Below are positions 6,212-24,351 of a stretch of 32,000 bases of DNA, piece by piece. Origin of the DNA: Candidatus Omnitrophota bacterium (GTDB taxonomy: Bacteria > Omnitrophota > Gorgyraeia > Zapsychrales > JANLHA01); assembly GCA_963662715.1 (NCBI GenBank), contig OY759724.1, positions 540,001 to 572,000 on the forward strand, in the 5' to 3' direction. Both the position numbers and the translations under genes were made by a program. Position 1 is the first letter of the stretch; the number at the start of each line of letters is the position of its first letter. Below the pieces are notes generated by a model, which did no database searches, was not told where the DNA came from, and saw only the letters and a program-made list of their open reading frames with translations.

Positions 6212-6226
6212 TTTTTTCGCGATAAT

Positions 6227-9300: not shown

Positions 9301-12300
9301 CACCTTTCATAACTGCGGAATTAGCTGTAAAACTGCAATTAATCAGTGTCGCGTAGCCATCATTGTTGTACATTGCACCACCCCGTTCTGAGAAGTTTCC
9401 ACTAAAGGTGCAATTAATCAACGTCGGCCAAGACATACTAAAATTATACATTCCACCACCGCTGGATTCTGCGGAGTTACCTGTAAAGCTACTGTTAATT
9501 AATGTCGGATTGCTAGAAGTGTCAACAGCCATGCCACCTCCGACTGCAGCAGAGTTACCGATAAAGGAACAGTTAATCAATGTCGGGTTGGCTTGGTCAA
9601 AGATCCACATTCCACCACCCAATGAACCCGAACGGTTTGGTAAGTTATTAATAAAATGACAGTTAATCAATATTGGATTACTATTTCTCCAGACCATCAT
9701 TCCACTACCATTAGCTGCAAAATTGCCGCTAAAAACACAATTAGTCAAAGATGGACTTCCATTATAAATATACATCCCACCACCACGTTCATCTGGCCAA
9801 TCTGGCCAAGCATTTGCATTCCCGCTACGAATCGTAAAACCGTCCAAAACTGCAGTTACATCGGTTCCGCTGCCAGTCACGACATGATAACTGTTTTCAC
9901 TATTATCCCCGCCGGATTCGTCATCACCGTTTAGATCACCGCTTAGAATGGTCACGTTTGTTTCATAATCCCTCTCATTTCGCTGGATTTCCGTGCCGTT
10001 AAATCCGCCGTAAAGAGCTACGTTATTAATGAGTTGGAAAGTAACAGTACGGTCACCTCCGGGCCCGTCTGGTGTATAAGTGCCGGCCGCCACCCAGATT
10101 TCATCACCAGCTAAAGCATTACTCAAAGCATCCTGTAAGTCCACATAGGCGTCTGCCCAGGAACTGCCGTCATTATTTCCTGTCGCACTATCATCCACAT
10201 AAATCGGCCCTTTTTTGTATTCATAAGCCCCCATATCCACGAGCGGCGGTGTGCCGTTACCTGTATCAATCGTTGCAGGATCATCATTAAGCCTAGCGTA
10301 ACCATCTAAGTCATAAGGAAGCGGTTCCGAAGTGTCTCCATCGCCATCCAGGTCAAATGTGTCTGCCGGCACCGCATCATTGTCACCGGCATCAATACTT
10401 GGCGACCCGGCGGAAAGCCGCAAATCATCGTCTTCTGTGCCTAAGATATCATCCAGCCCGTCAGGATCAACGAATAATGGATCGGCGTCAATATTACCGA
10501 TACCCGCATACCCGCCTTGGATGTTGGAGTAGGAAATAACCGGTGAGGAAGAAATATAATAAATTTCTTCAGGAGAATCTCCCCAAAGAATGCAGTTAGT
10601 AAAAATGGGGCTGCCGTAATAGTTGTAAGCCCCCCCTCCGCTTTCTCCTGCAGTGTTGCCGCTAAAAGTACAATTAGTTAAGGTTGAGCTCCCATAATCA
10701 TTGACCATTCCTCCACCCCTTTCTTCTGCAAAATTGGCTCTAAAGGAGCAATTGGTCAAGATTGGGCTGGACGTATAATTATTGAACATCCCACCGCCAT
10801 GTTTTCCGGCGTAGTTTTGGGAGAAGGAGCAGTTATTCAAGTTCGGGCTGGCGTAATCGTTAAACATCCCTCCACCGTGGAATTGGGCAGAGTTTTGGGA
10901 GAAGGAGCAGTTGATTAAAACCGGATTGCATATCCCCTCATTGTTCATTCCCCCGCCGCGGTTAATGGCATAGTTGCTGCGGAAGGAACAATTGGAAAGC
11001 GTCGGACTCCCCTCAACGTTGTATAGTCCTCCGCCATTTTGTTGTTGCCCACTTGAGCCGTTAGCATTCCCCCCCGTTATGGTGACCCCATCGAGAATTG
11101 CCGAGACATCTGTTCCGCTGGCGTTTACGACATGATAACTGTTCTCACTGTTGTTGGCAAAATCAGGCCCGTCATCCCCGTTCAAGTCGCCGCTTAAAAT
11201 GGTCACATTGGTTTCATAATCCCTCTGGGCACGTTGAGTCTCGGTCCCGTTAAAACCGCCGTAAAGAGCAACGCCATTTTTGAGTTGGAACGTGGCCGTG
11301 CGGTCACCGCCCGGCCCGGCAGGCGTATACGTGCCATCGGCCACCCAGATTTCATCACCGGATACAGCCGCGCTCAAGGCATCCTGCAAATCAACGTAAG
11401 CGTCCGTCCAGGAAGTCCCATCATTATTCCCCGTGGCATTACTATCCACATAAATCGTGGCTCTTTTGTATTCATAAGCCCCCATATCCACAAGCGGCGG
11501 AGTGCCGTTGCCGGTATCAATCGTTAATGGATCATCATAAAAACGCACGTCCCCGCCCAAGTCATAAGGAAGCGACTCTGTAGTATCCCCGTCCCCGTCT
11601 AAGTCATAAATATCAGCCGGAACCGCATCATTATCCCCGGCATCGATGCTAGGAGATCCTGCAGAAAGCCGTAAATCATCATCTTCTGTGCCTAAGATAT
11701 CATCCAGCCCGTCAGGATCAACGAATAATGGATCGGCGTCAATATTACCGATACCCGCATACCCGCCTTGGATGTTGGAGTAGGAAATAACCGGTGAGGA
11801 AGAAATATAATAAATTTCTTCAGGAGAATCTCCCCAAAGAATGCAGTTAGTAAAAATGGGGCTGCCGTAATAGTTGTAAGCCCCCCCTCCGCTTTCTCCT
11901 GCAGTGTTGCCGCTAAAAGTACAATTAGTTAAGGTTGAGCTCCCATAATCATTGACCATTCCTCCACCCCTTTCTTCTGCAAAATTGGCTCTAAAGGAGC
12001 AATTGGTCAAGATTGGGCTGGACGTATAATTATTGAACATCCCACCGCCATGTTTTCCGGCGTAGTTTTGGGAGAAGGAGCAGTTATTCAAGTTCGGGCT
12101 GGCGTAATCGTTAAACATCCCTCCACCGTGGAATTGGGCAGAGTTTTGGGAGAAGGAGCAGTTGATTAAAACCGGATTGCATATCCCCTCATTGTTCATT
12201 CCCCCGCCGCGGTTAATGGCATAGTTGCTGCGGAAGGAACAATTGGAAAGCGTCGGACTCCCCTCAACGTTGTATAGTCCTCCGCCATTTTGTTGTTGCC

Positions 12301-12787
12301 CACTTGAGCCGTTAGCATTCCCCCCCGTTATGGTGACCCCATCGAGAATTGCCGAGACATCTGTTCCGCTGGCGTTTACGACATGATAACTGTTCTCACT
12401 GTTGTTGGCAAAATCAGGCCCGTCATCCCCGTTCAAGTCGCCGCTTAAAATGGTCACATTGGTTTCATAATCCCTCTGGGCACGTTGAGTCTCGGTCCCG
12501 TTAAAACCGCCGTAAAGAGCAACGCCATTTTTGAGTTGGAACGTGGCCGTGCGGTCACCGCCCGGCCCGGCAGGCGTATACGTGCCATCGGCCACCCAGA
12601 TTTCATCACCGGATACAGCCGCGCTCAAGGCATCCTGCAAATCAACGTAAGCGTCCGTCCAGGAGGTACCGTCATTAAATCCCGTGGCATTGCTATCCAG
12701 ATAAATCGTGGCGCCATAGGCTTGTCCGGTAAAAATAAATGCTGTACATACTAAGCTGAGAACTGCAAATAGCGTTCTTTTAATCAT
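6344..12787 (-). CDS. Giant secreted repeat protein / putative adhesin: signal peptide, 3 right-handed beta-helix (Pmp/PbH1-like) modules, cadherin/Ig-like domains, 8 x 82-aa repeats
   Basis: 2147 aa. Signal peptide MIKRTLFAVLSLVCTAFIFTGQAYG. Three modules each open with a cap, IYVDSNATGNNDGTSWTDAYVDLQDALSAAVSGDEIWVADGTYTP, continue with coils of about 23 aa of the type NCSFSxNxAxxxGGGMxN, and close with DADPLFVDPDG...DDDLRLSAGSPSIDAGDN...GAYEY. Then come a VNDAPV-bounded cadherin-like domain and a He_PIG/CADG-like domain (PTGANFTDNGNGTGDFSWTP), followed by eight 82-aa repeats. Approximate nt map: signal peptide 12713..12787, module 1 11462..12712, module 2 10211..11461, module 3 8877..10210, cadherin/Ig region 8315..8876, repeats 6347..8314. 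Confidence 0.9.
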   Translation of the reverse strand: MIKRTLFAVLSLVCTAFIFTGQAYGATIYLDSNATGFNDGTSWTDAYVDLQDALSAAVSGDEIWVADGTYTPAGPGGDRTATFQLKNGVALYGGFNGTETQRAQRDYETNVTILSGDLNGDDGPDFANNSENSYHVVNASGTDVSAILDGVTITGGNANGSSGQQQNGGGLYNVEGSPTLSNCSFRSNYAINRGGGMNNEGICNPVLINCSFSQNSAQFHGGGMFNDYASPNLNNCSFSQNYAGKHGGGMFNNYTSSPILTNCSFRANFAEERGGGMVNDYGSSTLTNCTFSGNTAGESGGGAYNYYGSPIFTNCILWGDSPEEIYYISSSPVISYSNIQGGYAGIGNIDADPLFVDPDGLDDILGTEDDDLRLSAGSPSIDAGDNDAVPADIYDLDGDGDTTESLPYDLGGDVRFYDDPLTIDTGNGTPPLVDMGAYEYKRATIYVDSNATGNNDGTSWTDAYVDLQDALSAAVSGDEIWVADGTYTPAGPGGDRTATFQLKNGVALYGGFNGTETQRAQRDYETNVTILSGDLNGDDGPDFANNSENSYHVVNASGTDVSAILDGVTITGGNANGSSGQQQNGGGLYNVEGSPTLSNCSFRSNYAINRGGGMNNEGICNPVLINCSFSQNSAQFHGGGMFNDYASPNLNNCSFSQNYAGKHGGGMFNNYTSSPILTNCSFRANFAEERGGGMVNDYGSSTLTNCTFSGNTAGESGGGAYNYYGSPIFTNCILWGDSPEEIYYISSSPVISYSNIQGGYAGIGNIDADPLFVDPDGLDDILGTEDDDLRLSAGSPSIDAGDNDAVPADTFDLDGDGDTSEPLPYDLDGYARLNDDPATIDTGNGTPPLVDMGAYEYKKGPIYVDDSATGNNDGSSWADAYVDLQDALSNALAGDEIWVAAGTYTPDGPGGDRTVTFQLINNVALYGGFNGTEIQRNERDYETNVTILSGDLNGDDESGGDNSENSYHVVTGSGTDVTAVLDGFTIRSGNANAWPDWPDERGGGMYIYNGSPSLTNCVFSGNFAANGSGMMVWRNSNPILINCHFINNLPNRSGSLGGGMWIFDQANPTLINCSFIGNSAAVGGGMAVDTSSNPTLINSSFTGNSAESSGGGMYNFSMSWPTLINCTFSGNFSERGGAMYNNDGYATLINCSFTANSAVMKGGAIFNFVPDLMLLSNCIFWNDTPDELYEEDPSATTISYSNIQGGYAGIGNIDADPLFVDPDGPDNIPGTEDDDLRLSVGSPSIDAGDNTAVPVDTYDLDGDGDTTEPLPFDLAGDVRFYDDPLTIDTGNGTPPLVDMGAYEYNDINYPPVAEDISDETDEDTAVDITLLATDPDSDPLDYFIVDDPSYGSVVLVDDVATYTPDENYYGEDYFTYIAHDGTVDSNTATVTITVHSVNDAPVLDPIGDRVVDEGDTLSFTVTASDVEGDNLNLVGLNLPTGANFTDNGNGTGDFSWTPGYDQAGEYPNVEFEVSDDGTPSLSDNELITITVNNTEGFTCTIEPQAAIDDGAQWRLTTGPDTGWHDSGDVITGLPSADYRVRFRNIYGWTRPVDQVIPYPAGDYVEVQGTYTPIIEQGSISVTIAPQGAIDDGAQWRMTVGPDTGWHNSGEVISNVAVSTYTIRYRNIYGWERPADGSVTVTLGNTATTTGTYTEIIEEGAISVTIEPQGAIDDGAQWRMTVGPDTDWHNSGEVISNVAVNTYTIRYRNIYGWERPADGSVTVTVGSTATTTGTYTEIIEQGAISVTISPQGAIDDGAQWRMTVGPDTDWHNSGEVISNVAVNTYTIRYRNIYGWERPADGSVTVTLGNTATTTGTYTEIIEQGAISVTISPQGAIDDGAQWRMTTGPDTGWHNSGDMLNNVPVGTYTIRYRNIYGWERPADGSVTVTLGSTATTTGTYTEIIEQGSISVTISPQGAIDDGAQWRMTVGPDIDWHNSGDMLNNVPVGTYTIRYRNIYGWERPADGSVTVTLGSTATTTGTYTEIIEQGSISVTISPQGAIDDGAQWRMTTGPDTGWHNSGDMLNNVPVGTYTIRYRNIYGWERPADGSVTVTDGSTVTTTGTYTEIIEQGAISVTISPQGAIDDGAQWRMTVGPDTGWHNSGEVISNVAVNTYTIRYRNISGWERPVDGSVTVTAGSTATTTGTYVLP
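6347..8314 (-). repeat. Coding tandem repeat, 8 x 246 nt (82 aa)
   Basis: Protein repeats have the form IEQGxISVTIxPQGAIDDGAQWRMTxGPDTxWHNSG....YTIRYRNIYGWERPADGSVTVTxGxTATTTGTYTEI. Antisense ORFs in the track recur every 246 nt (6720, 6966, 7212, ...). The first copy is diverged. Confidence 0.95.
10211..12712 (-). repeat. Coding tandem duplication, 2 x 1251 nt (417-aa beta-helix module)
   Basis: Antisense ORFs at 11234 and 12485 are offset by exactly 1251 nt. Line-by-line comparison by eye shows 10431..11413 identical to 11682..12664 (983 nt). The flanks of each copy carry scattered, mostly synonymous differences. Confidence 0.9.
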
Positions 12788-12850
12788 TCTCTTGTCCTTT
12801 CCTTAATCTTTCGTTTCACTAATAAAAATATTCCTAATAACAGCAATTTA

Positions 12851-12885
12851 AAATAAAAAAAGCAACTCCCGTCTTTGAGAGTTGC
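12851..12885 (-). terminator. Terminator-like hairpin plus U-run inside the putative 5' leader of the giant gene
   Basis: The minus strand reads GCAACTC-(10-nt loop)-GAGTTGC followed by TTTTTTTTATTT. The stem arms are at 12879..12885 and 12862..12868. It lies between the candidate promoter and the ATG at 12787. Confidence 0.4.
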
Positions 12886-12953
12886 CTATAGAAACAATCT
12901 ATCCTCTTCTTTCCATTCAATGGTCCCAGGTGAAATATGTTTATTATTTTAGT

Positions 12954-12982
12954 AATATACTGCGGACAAAAAATATTGTCAA
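12954..12982 (-). promoter_or_regulatory. Candidate sigma70-type promoter upstream of the giant gene
   Basis: The minus strand reads TTGACA (12982..12977), a 17-nt spacer (atattttttgtccgcag) and TATATT (12959..12954). A 7-bp inverted repeat ATTGTCA/TGACAAT (12975..12981 and 12995..13001) overlaps the -35 element. Confidence 0.45.
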
Positions 12983-13350
12983 CGTGATAAAGTATGACAA
13001 TCAGCTTTTCTTGCGTCTTTCCATTTAAGGAAATATAACTCAACGAAATAAATTTTGGGAAAAAGGTCGATTTATATTCTGAGGGAATACCAATTAAGAT
13101 GAAGAAAAAATTTGCTTAACAGTAAAACCCATCGAGGATATTAAAAAAGAAGATACTGATTATCGAGGGAATGGTTCTAACTAAATTTAGGGCTCACTTA
13201 GGAATATTCATAAATTATTAATATTAAATAACTTATGCAGACATAAATTCAGGGTCCCTGATCGGTCTTGTTTCGACACCAGTGACCTTGATTTAAGCCA
13301 GATTCGACAGATTTTTGAGGAAATCGGGCTAAAAATGATCAACTAATCCT

Positions 13351-16300
13351 CTACCAGCGATCATGAGTAGTTACGATATTATCCGCCCCATAAATCTCGT
13401 TAACAAGCATAAGATCTATTAAATCAAGAATCTTTCTTCTAGCCTCTGCATTTGACTCAGATGATACATATTCACGTCTCAGAAGATCTTGAAGTTGGTG
13501 GACATCTGTACCCCGCCTTCCATGTTGATCGCCTTTTTCCGCAATATCTTTAATAACTTGTTGAGCCGCTTCAAGAACAAGATCAAGCACGTCACACGTA
13601 GCCTCTTCCAACATATGCAAAACCGCAAAGCCATTATTCACAAAAGCCGGTGATTTCAAGAATACATCTGCTAAGTCATGATATAATCCAACATCTTGCG
13701 CGGGAACATTTCTGAAGGCATCCGCGGCTTGATTTCGGACATGCTCATCTTCATCAAAAAAGAATTCCTTTAAAAGGGCTTCTGCCCGATGCCTATTCTC
13801 AGCCCAAGTTATTACATCACAGGCCACATCGGCTAGAAGCCTTCGATGATGAACACTTTTCAAAGCCAGTTTATTGGCTTGATCAATATAAGATTCATTC
13901 CTGAAACTTTCACCGAAGACAAGCCATGCCCCTACAAGTCCCATCGTTTCATCACCACTTTCCAATAATTTTGGAATAAGTTCAGCAGCGAGTTCGGGCA
14001 ACCAATGGAAAATGTATGGAAAAAGATACACACCCTGATGTGTAATAAGCGGATAAAGCCGTTGAATATCGCTTTGATGGGGAGAATCATTTGGAAGAAT
14101 AATTAACTTTTGAAGCGAGGTTGTAAATCGTTTTTTATCTTTATTAAATAGTGGAGTCAAAGTTTTTATCATACAACAACGTACGCTAATCAAAGGCTCA
14201 TTATCAAGCGCGATATCAATTACTTCCCAAACTCTATCCTCTGTCTCCGCTACCTGCCACAAAACTGCACTTAAAGCTTCCCAAGCCTGACCACGCACGC
14301 CACTGATACCACGAATATGAATCTGACCACCCCGTTGAAGAAGACTCTCAATATTCATGACTTCACGTTCTGCATTCTGAATATCTGAGTCTTTACCTTC
14401 ATCTGCTTCCCCATTCAAAGCATACCAGATTAACAATTCGAGTATTTCAGAATCACCAGCTACCTGAGGATGCTTTTCTATCAATCGCGCGACCTCTCTA
14501 CCAAAAGGTTTTTTGGAATGCATGTGGGCTCGTTTTACAGCCTGCACTAATGACTCATCAGAAGCTGTTTCCGTCTCTGCCAGACCATATAAAATAGCTC
14601 TAATGTATGAATCATGTGCATCATCAGATATTTTCAAACTTAAGTCCGAAAACCGTTTTGGATCCTTTTTTGTGGCTTCTTGAAGCTCACTGGCAAGCTG
14701 TCTCGCACCGCCATCAACAAAACCATGACCCCGGCGCCTATCTTCATCATTGTCATATCGTTTAATTGCAGAAAGCCAGTGTTTGTCTTTCATTTTTTCG
14801 CATTGAGCCCGTTTAATAGGTGAACCCACAAAATATGCACCCGATTGGCATGGTTCCGCAATTCTTCCTTTTTGGAATTTCCGACGAAGTTCATGTAACC
14901 GCGTCCTAACAGTAGGACCAAGCAATTCCTCTCCTATCTTTTCTAAAATACACCATTGTTCATATCCCGACCTATTAAGATCATAAATGGCTCCTTTTTT
15001 TGTTAGAAAAGGTTCTGTCTCCCCCTCCTGATTGATCCTTTGTAGACGGCTAATAGCAAAATCTATCCCTGGCTTATAATTGAGAATAGCTTGCTCAATG
15101 GTATTTTTCTTTTCAGTATCTAAATACGGAAATGCTGCCTGACAAGCTTGGGCAAATGACAACCAGTCTGTACCTTGATATCCTGCATCAAAACTCATTT
15201 TGTTAGCGATAAGATCGGACAAATGATTTCCAAAATATTCTGGATTTGATTGAATAACCTCCAAGTGCAAATGCATAAAGCATTCATGCTTATCCGGATT
15301 AAGCTTTTCAAGATAACCATCCGAGATTTCAGGATTATCTTTTGAAACCTGCTTAAAAGCAGACCGAAACATTCCCAGAAATCCATCAAATCCGAAACGA
15401 TCACCCGAAAAAGTTCTATAATTAAAATTATACCAATTTTTACCCTTTTCCCCCTCCGTCACCACCATATCAATTGAACGGGTCAACGCATTAATTGTCC
15501 CTTGCAAAAATGCTTGGGGAGCTTTCTTGGCAAGTTCTCCAAGAGAATGAGTATCAAATGCTTTCAGCTCGTCACGCTCAAAAGGATTGCGGCCAGGATT
15601 GAGTGCAAACCATGCTTCAAAAAGAGAGTGAAGTACCCGTCCACAGCGCTCAGGTGATTTCTCACCCCATGTATGAAGCAGCATCATAATACGGTCTCGC
15701 CCGCGATTCTGAAAAAGATCTTTGGGATGGGAATTGATGACATCTTCACATAACTGAAGGAGGTCGTCATCGGGTTTATTCCGCCTCACAAAACCAAACC
15801 AATTAAGAAGTTGGTCTGCACGCTCCGTATCATCCCCCCACCAAGAACGCAATATACTGGCAATCTCTGCTGGCCGTTCCCCTGCTATATGAGAAAGCCA
15901 CCAAAGCACTGTTTCGAGCCGCTCTTTATTCCTAGCTTCCAGTTGATTTTGTATCCATTTCTTCTCATTCAACAAGTCAAACCATGCCTGTGTCGATAAA
16001 ACTGCTTTACGAAATAATTGATGAAATCTTCCCGACTGATCATCAAACCTAGAAATTATTTCGAATTCTTGTTCGTTAGGATTATCAATTGAGTTTAACC
16101 ATTGGCAGATGGCAGTCTTAATATGAAAACGAATATCTTTAGAAAAAAGAACCGACGAAAGTTCGGCAAGATAACGTTGAGGATCATTTTGCCTTAAGGT
16201 CTCCAGAATCTGCCGCACCTGGGTCCGCCGGAAAAGATGCTGTTCAATTGTTGTAAGAAAAGAGATTATGCTGGTATTCTGATTTACAAATGCACGAGCA

Positions 16301-17979
16301 TAGACATGATCGAAGAAACTCTCGTGAAAAAAATTAACTTGACCACGAGACGAAATAATCAAACCTTCAGAAGTAAGAATATCTATGGCGTTCGGAAAAT
16401 CGTCTAGAATTGAATTCGGCGCACTCAGCTTTTGACGTTCACTCATCCAATTACTTAATACGGTTAAAGGTTGAATGACTGACCATTGTAGATTCCGATC
16501 CCTTGATATAGTTCTCTGTTTCTTTTCAAGCAATTTCTCATGAAGATTGGAACGGGACTGAAATGATACTGCCGAATCACCTATTTCCAGAAAAACGGCA
16601 AGATTAACCGGCAAACGGAGTAATTGACGTTGTGGTTCATTCAGGGAAGAGACATCAAATGCCTTTCTTTTTAGAAGAGGCTCAACCTCAGCTTTCCAAT
16701 CAAGCAAAGGAACTTCAATTTGTTTTGTCTTATTATTATTCTTCAGGCTTTTAAATCTCGGATCACTATCCAGGTCAAACGTTCGGCATACTGCAACGAT
16801 TTTGACATTTCCAAAATTATGTGCGTCAGCCATCAACCGGAATATAACCTCCTTTATTTGCCCATCCCGGCCAGAAACTTCACTAACAGCATCAACCTGA
16901 TCAATAAACAGAACAGAAGGCTGATCAGGAAATGTTCCCCTCAATGTACTAACAGGGCTTTCTTCCCGGCCTGTCAATCCCTTCCCAAGATCCTCTCTAT
17001 TGCTGCATGATAAATAATGATCGACTCTAAAAGCTAAGCAAGGTATTTCTTTTGCTTCCAACTGATTTATCACCTCACGAATAACTCCTGACTTTCCGGA
17101 ACCTGCAACGCCTGTCAGCAAGACTAATTCTGCCCCATCTGCTTTAAGGATTTCATCTAAAAGTGCGGTCGATTGACTTCTGGAAATAGTTTCTCCTCCA
17201 GCGCCAAAAGGCGTATATGTTTGAAGATACGCAGCAGTTTCTTCCTTCAACCGCTGTTGAATCGAGGGATCAAGTGACCATTCTTTAATTCTTAATACAT
17301 TCTGTGATTTTATGGCATTTCGTATGACCTCTGTTGTAAGAATTTTATTGAAATGCCTTTCAAGAATATCCCGAAGATTTGGGAAGGCGGACTTCCCTCC
17401 CACTTGGAAGTATAGATCCCCATAAGAATCAATTAAAGAATCTAACTCTCTTGCCGGAATAACTTCAACATGACTTCGCTTAAGCCATTCTAAGACGACC
17501 TCCTCTGTCTGTTGCCATTCCGTTTTCAATTGTTCAAAATGGTCTATCTGGGCTTGATTGAGGAATTCAGTAAATTGTTTAATAGAGGTAGCTATCTGGG
17601 CTTTTTCCGTAAGAACTCTAAAGTCTTTAGCATTATCCTGTGACACAAAAAAACAATGGGCGTTTTCATCCTCTGAAAACCGATTGGAGAAAGCCTTCAG
17701 GACGCCTTCTCTTTTGAGAGCATTGATAGTCCAATTCCCCCCAGGAGAATTCATTTTAGTCTGATGCCATTCTGTAACCGGCCCCCTAGCGATAGCAAAT
17801 TCAAATCCTTGATATTCAGTTTCGATACATTCAAAATTCAGCCAGTCTGCATTGCCTGCAATAACATCCAGTAAAGAACGAACCACCCATTTTGCTTCAT
17901 ATCTATTCCCGAGTTTATCCCATATCCCCCCTATATTTTGTTTGGCGTCATTTTTTTCCTTTAAAATATTCGTTTTCAT
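13351..17979 (-). CDS. Giant STAND/NACHT-like P-loop NTPase with an N-terminal PD-(D/E)xK-like (Cap4/Mrr-like) module and a long C-terminal helical HEAT-like repeat region (Avs/bNACHT-like architecture)
   Basis: 1542 aa. Walker A LLTGVAGSGKSG (aa 287-298, nt about 17089..17115). Walker B VLFIDQVDAVSE (aa 356-367). The NACHT-like strand KIVAVCRTFD follows. The N-terminal approx. 130 aa read YEAKWVVRSLLDVI...LNFECIE...GFEFAI...EWHQTK, a pattern of acidic residues plus QxK that resembles a nuclease. The C-terminal approx. 1100 aa are helical, with HEAT-like units such as DEDEHVRNQAADAFRNV. The ATG is 1 nt after the upstream stop (TGAtATG). Confidence 0.7.
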   Translation of the reverse strand: MKTNILKEKNDAKQNIGGIWDKLGNRYEAKWVVRSLLDVIAGNADWLNFECIETEYQGFEFAIARGPVTEWHQTKMNSPGGNWTINALKREGVLKAFSNRFSEDENAHCFFVSQDNAKDFRVLTEKAQIATSIKQFTEFLNQAQIDHFEQLKTEWQQTEEVVLEWLKRSHVEVIPARELDSLIDSYGDLYFQVGGKSAFPNLRDILERHFNKILTTEVIRNAIKSQNVLRIKEWSLDPSIQQRLKEETAAYLQTYTPFGAGGETISRSQSTALLDEILKADGAELVLLTGVAGSGKSGVIREVINQLEAKEIPCLAFRVDHYLSCSNREDLGKGLTGREESPVSTLRGTFPDQPSVLFIDQVDAVSEVSGRDGQIKEVIFRLMADAHNFGNVKIVAVCRTFDLDSDPRFKSLKNNNKTKQIEVPLLDWKAEVEPLLKRKAFDVSSLNEPQRQLLRLPVNLAVFLEIGDSAVSFQSRSNLHEKLLEKKQRTISRDRNLQWSVIQPLTVLSNWMSERQKLSAPNSILDDFPNAIDILTSEGLIISSRGQVNFFHESFFDHVYARAFVNQNTSIISFLTTIEQHLFRRTQVRQILETLRQNDPQRYLAELSSVLFSKDIRFHIKTAICQWLNSIDNPNEQEFEIISRFDDQSGRFHQLFRKAVLSTQAWFDLLNEKKWIQNQLEARNKERLETVLWWLSHIAGERPAEIASILRSWWGDDTERADQLLNWFGFVRRNKPDDDLLQLCEDVINSHPKDLFQNRGRDRIMMLLHTWGEKSPERCGRVLHSLFEAWFALNPGRNPFERDELKAFDTHSLGELAKKAPQAFLQGTINALTRSIDMVVTEGEKGKNWYNFNYRTFSGDRFGFDGFLGMFRSAFKQVSKDNPEISDGYLEKLNPDKHECFMHLHLEVIQSNPEYFGNHLSDLIANKMSFDAGYQGTDWLSFAQACQAAFPYLDTEKKNTIEQAILNYKPGIDFAISRLQRINQEGETEPFLTKKGAIYDLNRSGYEQWCILEKIGEELLGPTVRTRLHELRRKFQKGRIAEPCQSGAYFVGSPIKRAQCEKMKDKHWLSAIKRYDNDEDRRRGHGFVDGGARQLASELQEATKKDPKRFSDLSLKISDDAHDSYIRAILYGLAETETASDESLVQAVKRAHMHSKKPFGREVARLIEKHPQVAGDSEILELLIWYALNGEADEGKDSDIQNAEREVMNIESLLQRGGQIHIRGISGVRGQAWEALSAVLWQVAETEDRVWEVIDIALDNEPLISVRCCMIKTLTPLFNKDKKRFTTSLQKLIILPNDSPHQSDIQRLYPLITHQGVYLFPYIFHWLPELAAELIPKLLESGDETMGLVGAWLVFGESFRNESYIDQANKLALKSVHHRRLLADVACDVITWAENRHRAEALLKEFFFDEDEHVRNQAADAFRNVPAQDVGLYHDLADVFLKSPAFVNNGFAVLHMLEEATCDVLDLVLEAAQQVIKDIAEKGDQHGRRGTDVHQLQDLLRREYVSSESNAEARRKILDLIDLMLVNEIYGADNIVTTHDRW

Positions 17980-17980
17980 A

Positions 17981-18520
17981 TCAAACCCCCATCGCCCTCA
18001 GGATAGCATCGAGTTCGACAACATCCTGACGCCGCTCATCAAGAAGATCCCTGGGGAATATTTTTGTATATGAGCGCTTGTCTGATTTCTTATCTTGTCG
18101 AATGTACTTTTCCTCAAAGGCGCATTTACAGGAATCCGTTGTCTTTGCCTCCTGTGAAAATTTGGAATCTACGATCGTCAAGAACAAGCCTTCTATACAT
18201 GGCGTCGCGTTTAATATTTGAATGGACGGCTTTTTGCTCATTCGTCTTTTCAGCTCTCCGGCCGGAACGAAAGGTAAATCTTTATCGATGAGAACAAAAC
18301 ATTGATCATATGACCGGCTGCTTCTTAGGCGTATGGCCTTCTCAATGACACTTTGAGGCGAACCGCCCGAGCCGGACTCGACTTTAACCGCGATATCCAT
18401 ATCCCGAGTAACGTAAGTCTGCTGAACATGCTGTAAGAATGCTTTTTCCGTCGGCCCCTCCCCAACAATCAAAATTGTCTTTTTTGTACGTCTCGGTTTT
18501 CGCCTTGGCCGCGATACCAT
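17981..18520 (-). CDS. RloB-like (Toprim-like) protein, AbiLii-like
   Basis: 179 aa. TILIVGEGPTEKAFLQHV matches the RloB N-terminal motif (ilIvcEGekTE.xYF). YDQCFVLIDKD matches the acidic D.D motif. NATPCIEGLFL matches the nPcFE.w motif. An AGGAGG Shine-Dalgarno sequence overlaps the stop codon of the upstream ATPase gene. Confidence 0.7.
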   Translation of the reverse strand: MVSRPRRKPRRTKKTILIVGEGPTEKAFLQHVQQTYVTRDMDIAVKVESGSGGSPQSVIEKAIRLRSSRSYDQCFVLIDKDLPFVPAGELKRRMSKKPSIQILNATPCIEGLFLTIVDSKFSQEAKTTDSCKCAFEEKYIRQDKKSDKRSYTKIFPRDLLDERRQDVVELDAILRAMGV

Positions 18521-18529
18521 AGAGCCTCC

Positions 18530-19759
18530 TTAAATATTGGGTACCGCGCCGTACGCGCCGGCCATGTATTTGGCATAAATATTATCGTCTCGCCGCACTC
18601 CTTTTAAGTCATCCAAACGATACAGCTCGCTTTTACAATCCTTATTCTTTTCGACTAATACAATCTGCTCTTTTTCAAGATGATTTAATATCTCAAGCGA
18701 ATGCGATGTGAATAAGAGCTGCGTATTCTTTGGATTGGTATCCGGATTGGCAAAGAGTTCAATGATACAAGGAAGTGTATGTGGATGCAGATCTATCTCT
18801 AGCTCATCAATAACAGCCACGCCTCCCTGCTCAATCGCCGGCAAAAGAAAATGCAACAGAACAAACATATTCTTTGTCCCGCTGGACTCAAAGGCAAACG
18901 GCAAGTGATACATTTTTCCTTCAACAACGTGAACACCTAATGCACGATAAACCTTTCTAACTTCGCCAGTCTCGACATTCTGTGCATCACCTTCTTGAAT
19001 CGCAATGTCGTTCAATCCAAGATCAATGTCTTTCAAGAACTGTGTTGCCTTCTTAAATAATTTCTGATTTTTTCTATACTCTTCAGTCGCCTGAAACAGC
19101 CCTTGTTCTCCTAAAGATGCGGTATCCCAAGTCTTTCCCACACGATTGACATTACTGATAATTCCCTGCCAAAATTCTGAAATTTTTGTGATGGTCTCAT
19201 TCTTGATGGCAACCCCGGCAGCAATCAAAGAAACATTCCTGCGTAATATCTCTTTAATGACTTCGGCTCTCAGATTAATGCGCTGGATGATATCAGATTC
19301 TTCCTTTGTTGGATCCCAAAGGCGTTTAAAAAGATAGTTGAAATGATTGGTTGTTTTATCCTTTAAATATAAATCCTCTTTCAGAACGTGTGTTCTGCAT
19401 AAATAAAGAACATATTTATAAATTTCACCACCCTGCTCATAAACGATTTCAAACTCTGCTATACCTTTTTGATTCTTTGAAAAGGAGAATGTATCAAGGG
19501 GAATTGACTCTTTCTCCCCCTCCAACCCGGCAAAAGAATTACGCACAAACCAGCCAAGAAAAGACAAGGCCTTAAGCGCACTGGTTTTTCCGGACGCATT
19601 AGGGCCAATCACCGTTGTGACTTTGCTTAGCCGTGTGCCAGCCGGACTGTCACAAAACATGTTACTTTTTGTCTCCACTCCCTTTCGTAAGACTTCGAAA
19701 TTGATCGTGGATTCTTCGGCAAAGGAGCAGAAATTCTTGAATGTAAACGAATGGATCAT
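18530..19759 (-). CDS. ABC/SMC-head-like ATPase of the AAA_21 type (RloA / AbiLi-like)
   Basis: N-terminus MIHSFTFKNFCSF. Walker A GPNASGKTS. Signature-like ESSGTKN. Walker B VAVIDELEIDLHP. H-loop region LFTSHS. C-terminal YGAVPNI. The track start is 19771, but the ATG at 19759 is preceded by GGAGG at a 5-nt spacing and gives the canonical MI.sF.fKNF N-terminus. Confidence 0.8.
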   Translation of the reverse strand: MIHSFTFKNFCSFAEESTINFEVLRKGVETKSNMFCDSPAGTRLSKVTTVIGPNASGKTSALKALSFLGWFVRNSFAGLEGEKESIPLDTFSFSKNQKGIAEFEIVYEQGGEIYKYVLYLCRTHVLKEDLYLKDKTTNHFNYLFKRLWDPTKEESDIIQRINLRAEVIKEILRRNVSLIAAGVAIKNETITKISEFWQGIISNVNRVGKTWDTASLGEQGLFQATEEYRKNQKLFKKATQFLKDIDLGLNDIAIQEGDAQNVETGEVRKVYRALGVHVVEGKMYHLPFAFESSGTKNMFVLLHFLLPAIEQGGVAVIDELEIDLHPHTLPCIIELFANPDTNPKNTQLLFTSHSLEILNHLEKEQIVLVEKNKDCKSELYRLDDLKGVRRDDNIYAKYMAGAYGAVPNI

Positions 19760-19798
19760 ATTTTCCTCCATTTAGGAATAGAATAGCCTATCTGATAC

Positions 19799-19850
19799 AG
19801 TGAAATAATATCATTTCAACATAATTTTGTCAAATATAAATTATTTCACT
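19799..19850. promoter_or_regulatory. Nested inverted repeats overlapping the operon promoter (operator or recombinase-site candidate)
   Basis: Outer perfect 11-bp inverted repeat AGTGAAATAAT (19799..19809) / ATTATTTCACT (19840..19850), with a 30-nt spacer that contains the -35 element. Inner palindrome TGAAAT-AATATC-ATTTCA (19801..19818) covers the -10 element. Confidence 0.4.
19805..19833 (-). promoter_or_regulatory. Near-consensus sigma70-type promoter of the ATPase/RloB/STAND operon
   Basis: The minus strand reads TTGACA (19833..19828), a 17-nt spacer (aaattatgttgaaatga) and TATTAT (19810..19805). It sits about 45 nt upstream of the ATPase start, in the 74-nt gap after the recombinase stop. 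Confidence 0.55.
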
Positions 19851-20727
19851 CAATAAAATCATCCTTTGGGATGTTTTCCTCGCAAAACTCAATAATCTCC
19901 TTCCAGCGCTCCTCAGGTGTCTCAACCATGATCTTACACGCCCTCTGAATTAACTCTTCTACTGATAAGGCGCTGGCGGGAATTATATCGTTTTCTATTA
20001 TTCCCTTTCTTGTCGGCTTTGATTCCCGCTTCTTGACCTTGTACAACTTGGCCAAGGCCGCTTTGGTGTCTTCGTTGATCAAGCTTATATATGTTTCGGT
20101 GGTGTTGACGGATGAATGGCCGAGCTGTTCTTTGACAAGCTTGATGTTCTGTCCGGCCTTGAGCAGAAACGTTCCATAAGTATGCCGCAAACAATGGATC
20201 GAATATTGTTCGGATAGACCGGCCTCTTTCAGGCATCGCTTAAAGGCCTTCTGAAGTGCCCGTTTTGTTAATGGCTCACCCTCGTCTGAACTCAACACGA
20301 AACAATCCGGGTCATTGCTTAATCCTGATCTTTCACGAAGGATAAAGAATTCCTTGCATATTCTTTTGAATTCCGCGTTAATCCAGACAGAGCGTTTGCG
20401 GCCGCCCTTCCCGTTTTGGACGACGACGGAGGATTGTCTTCCGTCGATAAGCACATCACCGACCTTTAGCTGCCGCATTTCATCAACTCTCAATCCGGTG
20501 AATAGTCCAAGTTCGATCATAAACCAGTCACGAATAAGGAAAAACTTTTGATGCCGGATTCCTTCCTCTTTCAATTCCAAACAGGCGTTCCTAAGGCGAT
20601 CAACATCCGTAATACTGAGGATTTTGTTTTCGCTGATGGTCCATTTAAATGACTTTTTCTTTGGTTCACTTTTCATCTGTTTAATGAACCACTGAATTAG
20701 CCTCATAATAGACGTGATTACACACAA
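19846..20727 (-). CDS. Tyrosine site-specific recombinase (phage-integrase family), compact form lacking an N-terminal core-binding domain
   Basis: Catalytic residues: TGLRVDE (Arg I at track aa 80), HCLRHTYGT (HxxR) and GHSSVNTTETY (His and the nucleophilic Tyr at aa 213). The catalytic domain starts around aa 36. About 80 aa follow the Tyr. Alternative starts are at 20706 and 20676. Confidence 0.85.
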   Translation of the reverse strand: MCVITSIMRLIQWFIKQMKSEPKKKSFKWTISENKILSITDVDRLRNACLELKEEGIRHQKFFLIRDWFMIELGLFTGLRVDEMRQLKVGDVLIDGRQSSVVVQNGKGGRKRSVWINAEFKRICKEFFILRERSGLSNDPDCFVLSSDEGEPLTKRALQKAFKRCLKEAGLSEQYSIHCLRHTYGTFLLKAGQNIKLVKEQLGHSSVNTTETYISLINEDTKAALAKLYKVKKRESKPTRKGIIENDIIPASALSVEELIQRACKIMVETPEERWKEIIEFCEENIPKDDFIE

Positions 20728-21394
20728 CTATAAAAATGTTGTGAAAAGGTAACAATTTGCGCCTAAAATGTATTTATCGAAGACAAAAATAAAGAAAGGA
20801 GTTCATATTTCAGATGAAAGGTGAACTGCTGGAAAGAGAGAAATTCTTTTATTGGTGGGATAATTTTAAGAGAGATTGATAAATCTCTCGTCGAGGATTA
20901 GATTAAAAGGTTCTGACGTCCGGTCAGGGTCTAAATTGTATAATTATAACTAGTTGCAATTAAATAGGTTGCAATGCAAAAAATCTGGGGTCATATCTGT
21001 GTACCCTAACCCACGCAATGCTTATCCACAAATGATATTTGATAATTCATCCGTATAACTATTCTAAAAATCTCTTGCCTTTCCCTAATATTACACTTTT
21101 CGAAAAGAGTTTGCAAATTATTCGATGCCGTTTTCAGCCTTTTGAAAATGGGATTCTATGATCAATATGAAGTTATAAATTTGAGTTAATTGCGAGCTAT
21201 ACTCGCTTAAACAGCTTGCTTAAACAGTTTAACCTGTCATAATATATCTAAAGAACTATTTTCTGCGTAAATTGGTTTTGTGTTTTTATGCTTTCCTTCC
21301 CTGAGAACTTTGAAAAGCTCATACCAATTTCTCGACTGAAGCTCATGTTTCTCATTTTTTTTAACCTTTGCACAAATATTTTTATATCAGATAT

Positions 21395-23056
21395 ATGAAC
21401 AGAACACTTTCAGATCGAATCGTTATTACAGGTGAACCTATCGTGGCGGGATTTGCCATAGGACGGGTTTTTTATTACCAGGATGTTATAACGCGTGAAC
21501 TTGAATTGTTGAGCATCAATGAGAACCAGGTAGAAGGCGAAGTTCAAAGACTAAAAAACGCCCTGAATAAAGCACATCTCGATCTTGCCAACCTTAAATC
21601 ACAAGTGACTTCGGACATTGACGCAAAACACGCTGAGATATTCAATGTCCATCAAATGATATTAAAAGATATTGATCTCATCAAAGAAATAGAAAAAGAA
21701 ATAGAAAATAAATTATTGAACGTAGAGCAAGTCGTCCAAAATGTATTCCAACGACAGGAACAAAAATTGCGCGGAGCCAAGAATAATATTTTTCAAGAAA
21801 GAGCGAATGATGTTGTCGATGTCGGCAGGCGGCTCCTTAAAGCCCTTATGGGTGTAAACAAAAACAATCTATCCACTCTTCCTGATAATGCGGTTATCTT
21901 TGCGCAAAGACTGCTTCCTTCGGATACGGCTCTTTTAAACGTAAAAAATGCAAAGGCTATCGTGACGGTGGAAGGAGCGCAAAATTCTCATGCCGCGATT
22001 CTTGCTAGAGCCCTTGACATCCCTTTTGTTGCAAAAATTAATATCCCAAATGGTCACCTCTTATCCGAGAAACAAATTATCGTTGATGGTGAAAAAGGGG
22101 AAGTTGTCATTAACCCCACTCCTGCGGAACTCAAATCGTATCCTCAATTGATTCAAGAACGGTTAAAATCAAAGCAAAAAATCATTCAAGAAATTAAAGA
22201 TATCACACTTAAAAAAGACGATGAGCTCATTCGGGTATATGCAAACGTATCTTCACAAAGCGAGTTTAAAATGGCCAGGATGTTTAAAGCTGATGGGATC
22301 GGACTTTATCGAACCGAACCCTTTTATATGGGGAGAAGTGATCTGCCCAACGAAGATGAGCTTTTTGCTAAATTGACTAAAACTTTAAATGATGTGTCAG
22401 CCCAAAATGTTTTCCTTCGGCTGCTGGATATCAGCGGGGACAAGACTCTTCCCTTTCTGAATTTTATCGACTTGAAGGATCCGGCTTTAGGGTTAAATGG
22501 TATTCGTTTTCTTTTAAAATACCCACGCTTATTAGAATTACAACTGCGTGTTTTCTTAAGATTGAGCGCTAAATTTAATATCAATGTCGTCGTGCCCATG
22601 GTTACACTTGCCTCAGATATGAAGGATGTCTGTCAGTATCTTTCCCAAGAGAAAGAAAAACTTACAAAAGAGAACCTTCCCTTTAATTCTAAAATTCCCG
22701 TAGGGGCAATGATTGAGACGCCGGCAGCCCTCATGAGCATTGATGAACTTCTTAAATATTGTGACTTTTTAAGTTTTGGGACTAACGATTTAGTGCAGTA
22801 TGTTATGGCGGCCGGGAGAGAAAAACTTGATGTTGCCGATTATTATGAAGCCGGAAATCAATTGATTCTGCCTGCACTTAAAACAGCCATCCAGAAAGCA
22901 AAAGAGCTTGGCAAAGAATGCTGTATATGCGGAGAATTAGCCGGTAACCTGAAGTTTACTGAGGACCTTTTGAATATTGGAATTAGAAATTTCAGTGTGC
23001 AACCTTCATTGATTCCAACTGTCAAAAATAAAATCCATGATATTCTTTTCAAATAA
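21395..23056 (+). CDS. ptsI: Phosphoenolpyruvate-protein phosphotransferase (PTS enzyme I)
   Basis: Phospho-His region EGAQNSHAAILARALDIPFV. GIGLYRTEPFYM. FLSFGTNDLVQY. CCICGELAG. About 553 aa from the ATG at 21395; the track uses an upstream TTG at 21368. Confidence 0.88.
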   Translation: MNRTLSDRIVITGEPIVAGFAIGRVFYYQDVITRELELLSINENQVEGEVQRLKNALNKAHLDLANLKSQVTSDIDAKHAEIFNVHQMILKDIDLIKEIEKEIENKLLNVEQVVQNVFQRQEQKLRGAKNNIFQERANDVVDVGRRLLKALMGVNKNNLSTLPDNAVIFAQRLLPSDTALLNVKNAKAIVTVEGAQNSHAAILARALDIPFVAKINIPNGHLLSEKQIIVDGEKGEVVINPTPAELKSYPQLIQERLKSKQKIIQEIKDITLKKDDELIRVYANVSSQSEFKMARMFKADGIGLYRTEPFYMGRSDLPNEDELFAKLTKTLNDVSAQNVFLRLLDISGDKTLPFLNFIDLKDPALGLNGIRFLLKYPRLLELQLRVFLRLSAKFNINVVVPMVTLASDMKDVCQYLSQEKEKLTKENLPFNSKIPVGAMIETPAALMSIDELLKYCDFLSFGTNDLVQYVMAAGREKLDVADYYEAGNQLILPALKTAIQKAKELGKECCICGELAGNLKFTEDLLNIGIRNFSVQPSLIPTVKNKIHDILFK

Positions 23057-23096
23057 TAAATTAAAGATGAAGACATTTTTTCTTATCTTCTCTTAA

Positions 23097-23693
23097 TCAT
23101 ATTAAATCTTTTAAAGCTTCTTTCTGATTTTTATATATACGAATATTAGAGCCCGCCCCTTCTATTTCTAAATAACTCTCTAAGGTAGTATCTTGTGTAT
23201 TTATGAGACCCAATCTCTTGTCTTGCTTTTTCAGCTGACTTATTAAAGAAACCATATACGCTAAGGTTGAGCTATCAATGTGTGTAACTTCCCTGAAATC
23301 TAAAATAATATTTCTGTCGATATATTCTCTCATCTCATCCGTTATCTCAGTATCAATAATTGGCACGGTAGAGGAATCGATTACGCCTTGAAATATTACT
23401 ATTATAGTCCCGTTTAATCGTTTGATTTCTTTAATAGAGGGTAATAACTTGCCTTTTTCATCCCTGAAAATATCTACTACAGACCGTATCCTTGTTCGAC
23501 ATTTCTTCCGCCCTACAACAGAAATAGCCAACCCTATAATAATTCCAATTAGTATAGTTGAAAATAAAACAATAGCTCTGCTTGCTTCAAAGGTCCAAAA
23601 CAAAAACTTAACCTTTGTGGCTTCGTAATTCTGAGTTGTAAAAACCACCACAAGTGATAGCAGAATTAATATTGAAATTATCTTCCAGTTCAT
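23097..23693 (-). CDS. Membrane-anchored STAS-domain protein (LapA/DUF1049-like N-terminal TM module fused to an anti-sigma-antagonist-like STAS domain)
   Basis: 198 aa. The N-terminus ILILLSLVVVFTTQNYEATKVKFLFWTFEASRAIVLFSTILIGIIIGLAISVV matches the LapA_dom pattern (..QN...V.v.F..w). The C-terminus VIFQGVIDSSTVPIID...ILDFREVTHIDSSTLAYMVSLISQLKKQDKRLGLIN is STAS-like. Confidence 0.65.
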   Translation of the reverse strand: MNWKIISILILLSLVVVFTTQNYEATKVKFLFWTFEASRAIVLFSTILIGIIIGLAISVVGRKKCRTRIRSVVDIFRDEKGKLLPSIKEIKRLNGTIIVIFQGVIDSSTVPIIDTEITDEMREYIDRNIILDFREVTHIDSSTLAYMVSLISQLKKQDKRLGLINTQDTTLESYLEIEGAGSNIRIYKNQKEALKDLI

Positions 23694-23772
23694 TTAGTTT
23701 CCCTTCATACTTTGTCATCAAGAAATGTTAACGCTGTTCACAGAATCATTACAGTTTCAGGAAAACCAAGGC

Positions 23773-23883
23773 TCATACATGTTTTTTACGTTTGTCAGCC
23801 ATTTTCCGATTTCTTCTGGAAGACTCCTGAATTCGTTTTCCGTAATTGTATTTCGCTGAAATCTTATTGCTTTTAGATGTCAT
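23773..23883 (-). CDS. Candidate small, highly basic protein (36 aa)
   Basis: Below the ORF-track size cut-off. My own translation gives MTSKSNKISAKYNYGKRIQESSRRNRKMADKRKKHV. GGAGGTG lies 4 nt upstream of the ATG. No homology is recognised. Confidence 0.3.
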   Translation of the reverse strand: MTSKSNKISAKYNYGKRIQESSRRNRKMADKRKKHV

Positions 23884-23959
23884 ATCGCACCTCCAACAAG
23901 ATTACTTTTCCTTCACAGTCATAAATATTACCTAACCGTTGACCATGAGGTAAGGATTT

Positions 23960-24265: not shown

Positions 24266-24351
24266 TTTATTTCTCCTATTTAAACTACCCTCATAACCTT
24301 GCCATAGACCGCAAGGTTATTAGTCGTTTATTTACATTTTAGTTTACACCT

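Follow-up and report, generated by a model that had tools for sequence, protein, structure and literature searches.

The window, that is, the whole 32,000-nt stretch of DNA that was analysed, carries on its minus strand an island with the order integrase, AbiLi, AbiLii and Avs7-like gene. The integrase is a short tyrosine recombinase of 293 aa (19846..20727, minus strand; Pfam Phage_integrase 3.2e-29), located directly upstream of the other three genes and co-oriented with them; an earlier note on this DNA had correctly placed a recombinase next to the operon. A recombinase fragment with 58% identity (residues 1-111) lies directly upstream of a close AbiL cassette elsewhere (L169/L170), and the tyrosine recombinase probably belongs to the mobile surroundings of the AbiL cassette. 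No tRNA was found at the island boundaries, no convincing direct repeats were found to flank the island, and no GC discontinuity was found across AbiL and the last gene, hereafter the giant gene. An Rfam scan of 12.6-21.4 kb gave nothing meaningful.

The AbiLi or RloA-type ABC ATPase is encoded at 18530..19759 (minus strand, 409 aa). From the first ATG the open reading frame would span 18530..19771 (413 aa), and the second ATG (19759) is favoured, with a database protein (P0121) of 409 aa and GGAGG 6 nt upstream. The protein matches Pfam AAA_21 (3.9e-29) and AAA_15 (2.7e-15) and PADLOC AbiLi (6.9e-76), and 23 homologues show little or no variation in its Walker A (GPNASGKT), signature (SSGT), Walker B (DE) and H-loop His. 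The second gene (17981..18520, minus strand) encodes a 179-aa AbiLii or RloB Toprim-type nuclease subunit, which matches Pfam RloB (1.7e-12) and PADLOC AbiLii (1.3e-10 and 5.5e-10) and has the Toprim motifs G20-E21-G22-x-T24-E25 and D79-x-D81, invariant or nearly invariant among 21 homologues. Direct adjacency of AbiLi and AbiLii is kept in 50 of 80 sampled AbiL loci.

AbiL (AbiLi/AbiLii) of Lactococcus is equivalent to RloA/RloB of Campylobacter, and AbiL/RloAB belong, together with PARIS (AriA/AriB), to the two-gene split OLD-family class, which pairs an ABC-ATPase with a Toprim protein. By its profile matches and motifs, the pair of the window is assigned to the AbiL/RloAB two-gene module, in agreement with the earlier note. 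Like AbiL, it has the gene order AAA_21/AAA_15 ATPase, then RloB Toprim, with intact catalytic motifs; unlike AbiL, it has a short AbiLii (179 aa) and appears to share its transcript with a third defence gene of unrelated kind. As both proteins are distant in sequence from the lactococcal prototypes, the assignment rests on HMMs. PARIS was considered for the pair and rejected: the AriA matches (1e-33 and 1.5e-17) are far below that to AbiLi, both AriA-matching models equal Pfam AAA_21 and AAA_15 in length and matched range, and for the second protein there is no match to AriB. AbiL of Lactococcus consists of two genes, and this two-component system is placed in one group with PARIS (PMC13064643).

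A sigma-70-type promoter with a TG extended -10, TTGACA-17-TATTAT (19805..19833, minus strand), precedes the ATPase gene; with 11 of 12 positions matched, it is the top-scoring promoter site of the region. Promoter-like sites as a class were not enriched (23 found vs 18.9 expected), so that the scan taken by itself is weak evidence. An orthologous cassette (L081), whose homology to the window starts just upstream of the -35, has the site with almost every base unchanged; this conservation is better evidence for the promoter than the scan, and indicates that the promoter is that of the AbiL cassette itself.

The ATPase stop TAA sits within TAAGGAGG, in the Shine-Dalgarno sequence of the RloB-like gene, and is separated from the RloB ATG by 9 nt, GGAGGCTCT. 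The RloB stop and the start of the giant gene form TGAtATG, with a 1-nt gap. These junctions and the near-consensus promoter had all been described in the earlier note and read in the sequence as it gave them. No convincing intrinsic terminator was found inside the three genes, where the two terminator-like sites are poor, with few G-C pairs and within coding sequence. The first convincing one 3' of the giant gene is a strong terminator at 12860..12887 (minus strand; stem of 11 pairs, then a T-run), which lies also 3' of a second promoter (12982..12954) and may end the operon transcript. Because of the gene spacing, the three genes are likely carried on one transcript, as had been proposed.

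The giant gene (13351..17979, minus strand) is an uninterrupted open reading frame of 1542 aa. A profile of its family aligns residues 2-654 to residues 2-657 of SeAvs7, the Avs7 of Salmonella (9n00), with E=4.3e-30, and 9n00 is the sole PDB sequence match of such strength by phmmer and profile. Within this alignment, residues 2-260 correspond to the SeAvs7 Cap4 domain. A Cap4-like PD-(D/E)xK nuclease domain is accordingly placed at residues ~17-255 (17215..17931, minus strand) by the profile, a confident AF2 model and Foldseek; E50, E60, Q73 and K75 are invariant among 24-38 homologues. No Pfam nuclease model matched the giant protein at E<=0.01. The top Foldseek matches of the N-terminal half are Avs3 (8dgc) and Avs4 (8dgf).

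Residues ~265-640 (16060..17187, minus strand) form a predicted STAND NTPase with nucleotide-binding, helical and winged-helix domains. Here phmmer aligns residues 272-655 with SeAvs7 (1.5e-16), Pfam matches are weak (AAA, AAA_16, NACHT, nSTAND1, nSTAND5), and Foldseek matches are Avs3/4, NLRP3/9, NLRC4 and NOD2. The family shows no variation at K296/S297 (Walker A), D360 (Walker B), R399, R371 or H552, and K296, D360, R399, R371 and H552 align with K292, D358, R395, R367 and H545 of SeAvs7. The best PADLOC match of the protein, the candidate PDC-M54A, covers the NTPase only. The trio was considered as the two-gene candidate PDC-M54 and rejected, as the giant matches PDC-M54A in its NTPase part only; no PDC-M54 model is among the matches listed for the AbiL proteins, and no mention of PDC-M54 was found in the literature.

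The remaining residues, ~641-1542 (13354..16059, minus strand), are modelled by AF2 as an all-alpha HEAT/TPR-like solenoid (entirely helical, mean pLDDT 87), which is presumed to be the sensor of a phage protein. The Avs7 family is defined by its sensor, and the Avs7/Dsr1-type sensor is bilobed and helical. Profile comparison gave one weak colinear stretch between residues 1001-1121 of the giant and 988-1107 of SeAvs7, so likeness of the two sensors is weakly supported. Foldseek of the sensor against a PDB library to April 2026, without 9N00, found only generic HEAT/ARM solenoids (CAND1, importins, SF3B1), and alphaRep/HEAT matches lie at ~1353-1422. The PADLOC Dsr1 model did not match the giant. 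A Dsr1-like protein with effector and sensor and without NTPase was sought among the sensor homologues, and the nine shorter relatives, most of which look like fragments, have no SIR2 or other effector.

For the sensor part, phmmer gave 1462 representative clusters, mostly of ~1500-1530 aa and with the same layout. The earlier reading of the giant as nuclease, STAND NTPase and repeat sensor is borne out by the SeAvs7 profile (E=4e-30), AF2 and Foldseek, on which grounds the protein is classed as Avs-type, with an N-terminal nuclease, STAND NTPase and helical-repeat sensor. It resembles SeAvs7 (PDB 9N00/9N01/9YIX) in length (1542 vs 1523 aa) and in the order Cap4-type nuclease, STAND NTPase and helical sensor, and differs from it in that the NTPases share only ~20-25% identity. 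With Avs3 and Avs4 (PDB 8DGC, 8DGF), the best fold matches of its N-terminal half, it shares a nuclease effector with a STAND NTPase; unlike them, it has a sensor of another type, and no sequence-level match to either was detected. Avs3 and Avs4 sensors recognise terminase and portal. SeAvs7 protects E. coli as a single gene, with its Cap4 nuclease required, and is triggered by the major capsid protein of phages, EF-Tu being the cofactor (Lee et al., Nature 2026, PMC13581612).

The five closest homologues of the giant start with MIPGGIADKLG, which corresponds to residue 14 of the window protein. No recognisable start is present at that position in the window, and the ATG used lies 1 nt past the AbiLii stop, in frame and with a G-run 6 nt upstream. 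The resulting 13-codon N-terminal extension is lineage-specific, has no known homology, and residues 1-20 are disordered in the AF2 model. The junction segment with the AbiLii stop, the giant ATG and the 13-codon extension (17951..17984, minus strand) forms an inverted repeat with a second arm inside the giant gene (16118..16151, minus strand; codons ~610-620, FSKDIRFHIK). The arms pair at 27 of 34 positions, including an exact 16-mer, of which 0.01 are expected in 13-20 kb, and the counterparts of 16118..16151 in homologues are less complementary to the 5' arm of the window. A long-range hairpin over the new start of the giant gene is possible on this pairing. The 5' UTR of the giant gene was compared with those of homologues in order to place the recombination junction, and the alignment was ambiguous.

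Conservation of the trio was surveyed from both sides. For the giant, 80 genomic loci were taken from many phyla (homologues with 25-73% identity, 8-kb reach) and searched for AbiL by tblastn and with two HMMs, for which 109 and 117 homologues had been used; neither AbiLi nor AbiLii was found by either method within 8 kb of the giant homologue at any of the 80 loci. Similarly, none of the 80 first-sampled AbiL loci had a giant homologue. Each of the exact three proteins of the trio is found on one contig only. Genes upstream of the giant homologues are heterogeneous and rich in defence functions (TIR, Eco57I, type ISP, PIN, Schlafen, AIPR, Mrr, HepT).

The closest AbiL cassette (L081) has 89%/83% identity to the window pair, and its DNA homology to the window extends from the promoter to the AbiLii stop only, after which an unrelated gene follows. 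The gene 3' of close cassettes varies in ~13 contexts (RadC, IS3, R-M, HsdR, MBL-fold, unknown or none). In a related organism (L175), where a PAS-GGDEF-HD neighbour is 79% identical, AbiL is kept and the third gene is different. By these comparisons the pair is seen to behave as an independent, mobile two-gene cassette of ~1.9 kb with its own promoter.

Another close cassette (L163/L164; 84%/80% identity) is followed by a gene for 217 aa and then by a different, split Avs7-like STAND gene, which has 24% identity to the giant (E=3e-25) and matches SeAvs7 with 9.5e-19. The 217-aa gene was considered as a split Cap4 domain and rejected (hhalign probability of 0.2% against the giant N-terminus; no PDB match); its PADLOC match is to the N-terminus of the candidate PDC-S60. 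Avs7-like STAND genes thus follow the cassette in 2 of ~13 contexts. This frequency among independent contexts exceeds pure chance for a rare family and counts against plain stacking. With only 24% identity between them and different effector modules, the two STAND genes found behind such cassettes did not descend together with the cassette.

At this locus an AbiL cassette directly precedes an Avs7-type STAND gene, itself a one-gene defence system, and the whole is very probably a small defence island in which two autonomous anti-phage systems of described kinds adjoin. The earlier note had proposed a three-component system, in which the ATPase/Toprim pair and the STAND sensor act as one machine; the STAND protein might sense and the Toprim or Cap4 nuclease execute, or AbiL might regulate the STAND protein. 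The tight spacing of 9 nt and 1 nt behind one promoter, a giant gene without its ancestral start that depends on the upstream genes, and the second AbiL-then-Avs7-like arrangement (L163/L164) are in keeping with such a machine. Against it, the giant occurs without the pair in 80/80 loci and the pair without the giant in 80/80, which is the pattern the note itself had named as evidence of chance juxtaposition; the cassette homology ends at the AbiLii stop, the genes downstream of close cassettes are unrelated, and the STAND genes among them are as divergent in sequence and effector as described above. Each part moreover has a complete catalytic set, and relatives of both work alone. One machine is therefore very unlikely, and the suggestion that the combination is a new system is not supported, as both parts match named, self-sufficient systems (AbiL and Avs7).

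Two further explanations concern what the join does. AbiL/Rlo pairs could be guard cassettes that habitually insert into the operons of other defence systems (the Avs7-type STAND gene here and in L163, the type I HsdR gene in L176), and would abort the infection when a phage inhibitor neutralises the neighbour, or when the phage disables or evades it in some way; in the window the pair would serve as a back-up to the Avs7-like sensor, with shared expression and without a complex. Close cassettes do adjoin or overlap defence genes, including HsdR with a 4-nt overlap (L176), R-M (L165), Dcm/Vsr/CBASS (L171) and, twice, an Avs7-like gene. The name Rlo, for 'restriction-linked ORF', comes from Campylobacter type I loci (cited in PMC13064643), and PARIS, which senses the anti-restriction protein Ocr, offers a precedent (PMC13064643). 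Defence genes, however, cluster in islands regardless, several close cassettes have no same-strand defence neighbour (L173, L083) or adjoin genes of mobile elements (RadC, IS); a guard function is on balance unlikely. It is highly improbable that the giant is a decaying remnant, no longer properly expressed since its promoter and start codon were displaced by the cassette. The ancestral start (MIPGG...) has indeed given way to the extension without known homology, and the possible hairpin would lie over the new start, but the 1542 codons are unbroken, all family-invariant catalytic residues are present, and an in-frame ATG with its G-run directly follows the upstream stop.

Two autonomous systems side by side thus remain the preferred reading, and the join between AbiL and Avs is very probably an accident of this genome or, at the most, a matter of co-regulation, with no shared mechanism. 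Because the start of the relatives is lost and the ATG lies 1 nt past the AbiLii stop, the expression of the giant appears to depend on AbiL: here the AbiL promoter most likely drives transcription of the Avs gene, whose translation would start by termination-reinitiation after the AbiLii stop, and low, coupled Avs expression would be the outcome. By homology to PARIS and other split OLD-family ATPase and Toprim systems, the AbiL ATPase would hold and sense, and the Toprim nuclease would be released or activated on infection, so that the infection is aborted. The giant would act as SeAvs7 does: the helical sensor would bind a conserved phage protein, this binding would open the ADP-bound NTPase, and ATP-driven oligomerisation would assemble the Cap4-like PD-(D/E)xK nuclease, by which DNA would be cut.

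As two systems side by side, the locus is routine defence-island stacking, by which AbiL and the Avs7-like STAND family each gain one divergent member, and which would show how a mobile two-gene cassette can bring the defence gene next to it under its own expression. If the guard reading were true, selection would have made a two-layer unit of the welded AbiL and Avs7-like gene, with its dependence at the levels of transcription and translation, and the weld would be no accident. Should the placement of AbiL/Rlo pairs in defence operons prove non-random, this would point to ATPase-Toprim modules as a general guard layer, and the long-standing observation of "restriction-linked ORFs" would be explained.

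The three genes lie on the minus strand as an ATPase ORF (18530..19771; 413 aa counted from its first ATG), an RloB ORF (17981..18520; 179 aa) and a giant ORF (13351..17979; 1542 aa). The junctions described in the earlier note are borne out by the sequence: the ATPase stop TAA is located within TAAGGAGG, 9 nt from the next ATG, and the RloB stop and the giant start together read TGAtATG. The ATPase start is most likely the second ATG (19759), giving 409 aa, because an identical database protein (P0121) and all relatives have this length and this ATG is preceded by GGAGG at a distance of 6 nt. The promoter TTGACA-17-TATTAT (19833..19805) has a TG extended -10, scores 11/12 and is the top site in the region. 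Promoter-like sites as a class show no enrichment (23 vs 18.9 expected), and this site is considered credible because the orthologous cassette at L081, a sampled locus, has kept it.

Pfam AAA_21 (3.9e-29) and AAA_15 match the first protein, as does PADLOC AbiLi (6.9e-76); for the second, the matches are Pfam RloB (1.7e-12) and PADLOC AbiLii (1.3e-10). ABC ATPase motifs of AbiLi are kept across 23 homologues, and Toprim motifs GEGxTE and DxD of AbiLii across 21. In a recent review AbiL has been grouped with PARIS as a two-component system of ABC-ATPase plus Toprim/OLD, with the stress that the AbiL mechanism is untested, and Campylobacter RloAB has been placed in the same class (PMC13064643). 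By homology, AbiL would work as a PARIS-like ATPase-Toprim toxin/sensor pair.

In the giant protein, Pfam detects only weak P-loop/STAND signals (residues 263-415). Among PDB sequences there is one strong match, 9n00_A ("AAA family ATPase", 1523 aa; phmmer 1.5e-16, residues 272-655), and this entry is the apo form of Salmonella enterica Avs7 (SeAvs7). SeAvs7 is composed of a Cap4 nuclease, a STAND NTPase and a TPR sensor; the target of the sensor is the major capsid protein of tailed phages, EF-Tu is recruited, the protein tetramerises and DNA is cut (PMC13581612). A profile of 24 full-length giant homologues aligns positions 2-654 with SeAvs7 2-657 (E=4.3e-30), and shows a weak colinear sensor stretch (giant 1001-1121 vs SeAvs7 988-1107). 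Conserved nuclease residues E50, E60, Q73 and K75 form the PD-(D/E)xK/QxK motif, and conserved NTPase residues K296/S297, D360, R399, R371 and H552 align with SeAvs7 K292, D358, R395, R367 and H545, highlighted in the same study (PMC13581612). AlphaFold2 models the N-terminal half confidently (pLDDT 86, pTM 0.83), with Avs3 and Avs4 as top structural matches followed by NLR NACHT modules. The C-terminal half is modelled as an all-alpha solenoid (pLDDT 87) and matches generic HEAT/ARM proteins only, in a fold library older than the 9N00 release. The giant is therefore called Avs7-like: its NTPase and effector agree with those of Avs7, and its sensor may do so. The family is large and widespread, with 337 clusters scored and 234 genomic matches in Desulfobacterota, Alpha- and Gammaproteobacteria, Cyanobacteria, Planctomycetota, Actinomycetota and others; with the sensor alone, 1462 representative clusters match. 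By analogy with SeAvs7, binding of a phage protein would lead to ATP-dependent oligomerisation and activation of the Cap4 nuclease; the protein sensed by this clade need not be a capsid protein.

The trio had been proposed to form a single three-component composite defence system, a proposal that finds no support from either side. Giant homologues were sampled at 80 loci from different species (25-73% identity, mostly 8 kb flank), and tblastn found AbiLi/AbiLii relatives near none of them (0/80). An HMM built from 117 AbiLii homologues likewise found no AbiLii in these loci, and the only find of one from 109 AbiLi homologues was a marginal ABC ATPase (E=1e-3) encoded on the other strand. The pair is likewise missing beside the closest giant relative (74% identity). 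The genes directly upstream of giant homologues are all different, with many other defence functions among them (TIR, Eco57I, type ISP, PIN, Schlafen/AlbA_2, AIPR, Mrr and HepT). At 80 AbiL loci, AbiLi-AbiLii adjacency is retained in 50, and a giant homologue is found in 0/80 (tblastn; family HMM at E<=1); the genes downstream vary (RadC, NIF3-like, UvrD-like helicase, HD, unknown). Each of the three exact proteins is recorded on one contig only. Conserved co-occurrence is lacking from either side, and a true three-gene system is considered very unlikely.

The closest cassette, L081 (AbiLi 89%, AbiLii 83% identity), is homologous to the window at the DNA level; the homology starts shortly before the -35 box and ends at the AbiLii stop, and an unrelated, unknown 313-aa gene follows. 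The mobile unit therefore comprises the promoter and two genes, ~1.9 kb. With further cassettes sampled at AbiLi identities of 72% or more, the close contexts show AbiLii followed by RadC or a RadC fragment (L095, L082), RadC and then Dcm, Vsr, patatin and CBASS (L171/L172), an IS3 transposase (L169/L170), R-M and Fic (L165-L168), or a 183-aa gene and an MBL-fold protein (L175); in L173/L174 and L083 no gene follows on the same strand. In L176 (4473-7792) a type I HsdR gene (PADLOC REase_I 1.5e-164) overlaps the AbiLii stop by 4 nt, a clear case of an Rlo-type pair inside a restriction operon, with coupling as tight as in the window.

In L163/L164 (84%/80%), AbiLi and AbiLii are followed after a 48-nt gap by a 217-aa gene and a STAND gene that runs off the contig. 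This STAND protein has no N-terminal effector, is 24% identical to giant residues 277-709 (E=3e-25) and also matches SeAvs7 (9.5e-19). The 217-aa protein (L163:9343-9993) shows no relation to the nuclease domain of the giant; its match to the PADLOC single-gene candidate PDC-S60 (4e-11) is confined to the N-terminal 150 residues of that candidate. It may represent an uncharacterised effector domain with a gene of its own. The arrangement resembles an Avs7-type gene that was split and has another effector. AbiL/Rlo pairs could be guards embedded in other defence operons, with a guard or back-up function towards the Avs7-like neighbour. Its recurrence in about 2/13 independent close-cassette contexts speaks for such a link, which is nevertheless improbable; the two STANDs, at 24% identity, are too different to have travelled with 84%-identical cassettes, and the Avs7-like gene is read here as one of many neighbours of AbiL cassettes.

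The window island also carries a tyrosine recombinase, and a truncated homologue (58%, residues 1-111) is located directly upstream of a close cassette (L169:245-577, L170:652-984), which hints that recombinase and cassette move together. L175, from Candidatus Auribacterota (GCA_042584625.1), retains AbiL with a different third gene; its PAS-GGDEF-HD protein is 79% identical to that at window 25130-26596, and a PEP-utilising enzyme gene adjoins the AbiL cassette (73% identity; compared with window 21368-26596), the gene order relative to AbiL being inverted. The shared genes suggest that the two organisms are related and that this neighbourhood repeatedly takes up defence cargo.

In each of the five closest giant homologues the protein begins MIPGGIADKLG, with a conserved leader ahead. 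At this position the window giant reads QNIGGIWDKLG, and it starts 13 codons earlier at an ATG abutting the AbiLii stop; no other in-frame start occurs before Met76, which lies past the nuclease catalytic residues. The N-terminal extension is predicted to be disordered. As the MIPGG start is absent, the gene no longer has a start of its own, and its promoter has presumably gone as well, which might mark it as a relic; since the ORF is otherwise intact and all invariant residues are present, it is considered functional. The giant would now depend on the AbiL promoter, with translation probably by termination-reinitiation, and the resulting low, coupled expression would be tolerable for a toxic nuclease. 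A 34-nt inverted repeat (17951-17984 / 16118-16151; 27/34 matched, exact 16-mer ATATGAAAACGAATAT) has one arm over the AbiLii stop, giant start codon and first ~10 giant codons and the other over giant codons about 610-620. One exact 16-nt inverted repeat was seen in 13-20 kb vs 0.01 expected, and lineage-specific changes make the internal arm more complementary than it is in homologues. Fold-back copying may have created the new 5' end; another possibility is a long-range RNA pairing that masks the giant start codon.

The first convincing terminator downstream of the giant gene (12887..12860), a strong intrinsic one, lies ~70 nt beyond a second near-consensus promoter on the minus strand (TTGACA-17-TATATT, 12982..12954). 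Both precede a surface-protein gene (start 12787), and the stretch 12860-12982 could be a short leader, attenuator or small RNA; an Rfam scan of window 12600-21400 found nothing. The surface protein (6344-12787, minus strand; 2147 aa) is repetitive, with Big_9, cadherin-like and tandem-95 repeats; in its gene, 246-nt units recur in tandem (7-8 copies) alongside repeats of about 1.25 kb, and GC reaches 0.57 vs 0.37-0.44 in the surroundings. Direct repeats of 27 nt (5666-5692 / 6191-6217), each with the palindrome TCCACGGCC...GGCCGTGG, lie on both sides of an IS200-type Y1 transposase gene (5718-6146; Pfam Y1_Tnp 1.6e-28). Such palindromes are typical of IS200/IS605 end hairpins.

AbiL/Rlo pairs are read here as mobile cassettes that settle in defence islands, in many cases within other defence operons, in agreement with the historical name "restriction-linked ORFs". 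For the trio the best explanation is stacking in a small island, with the pair and the giant each adding a new, divergent member to a known system.
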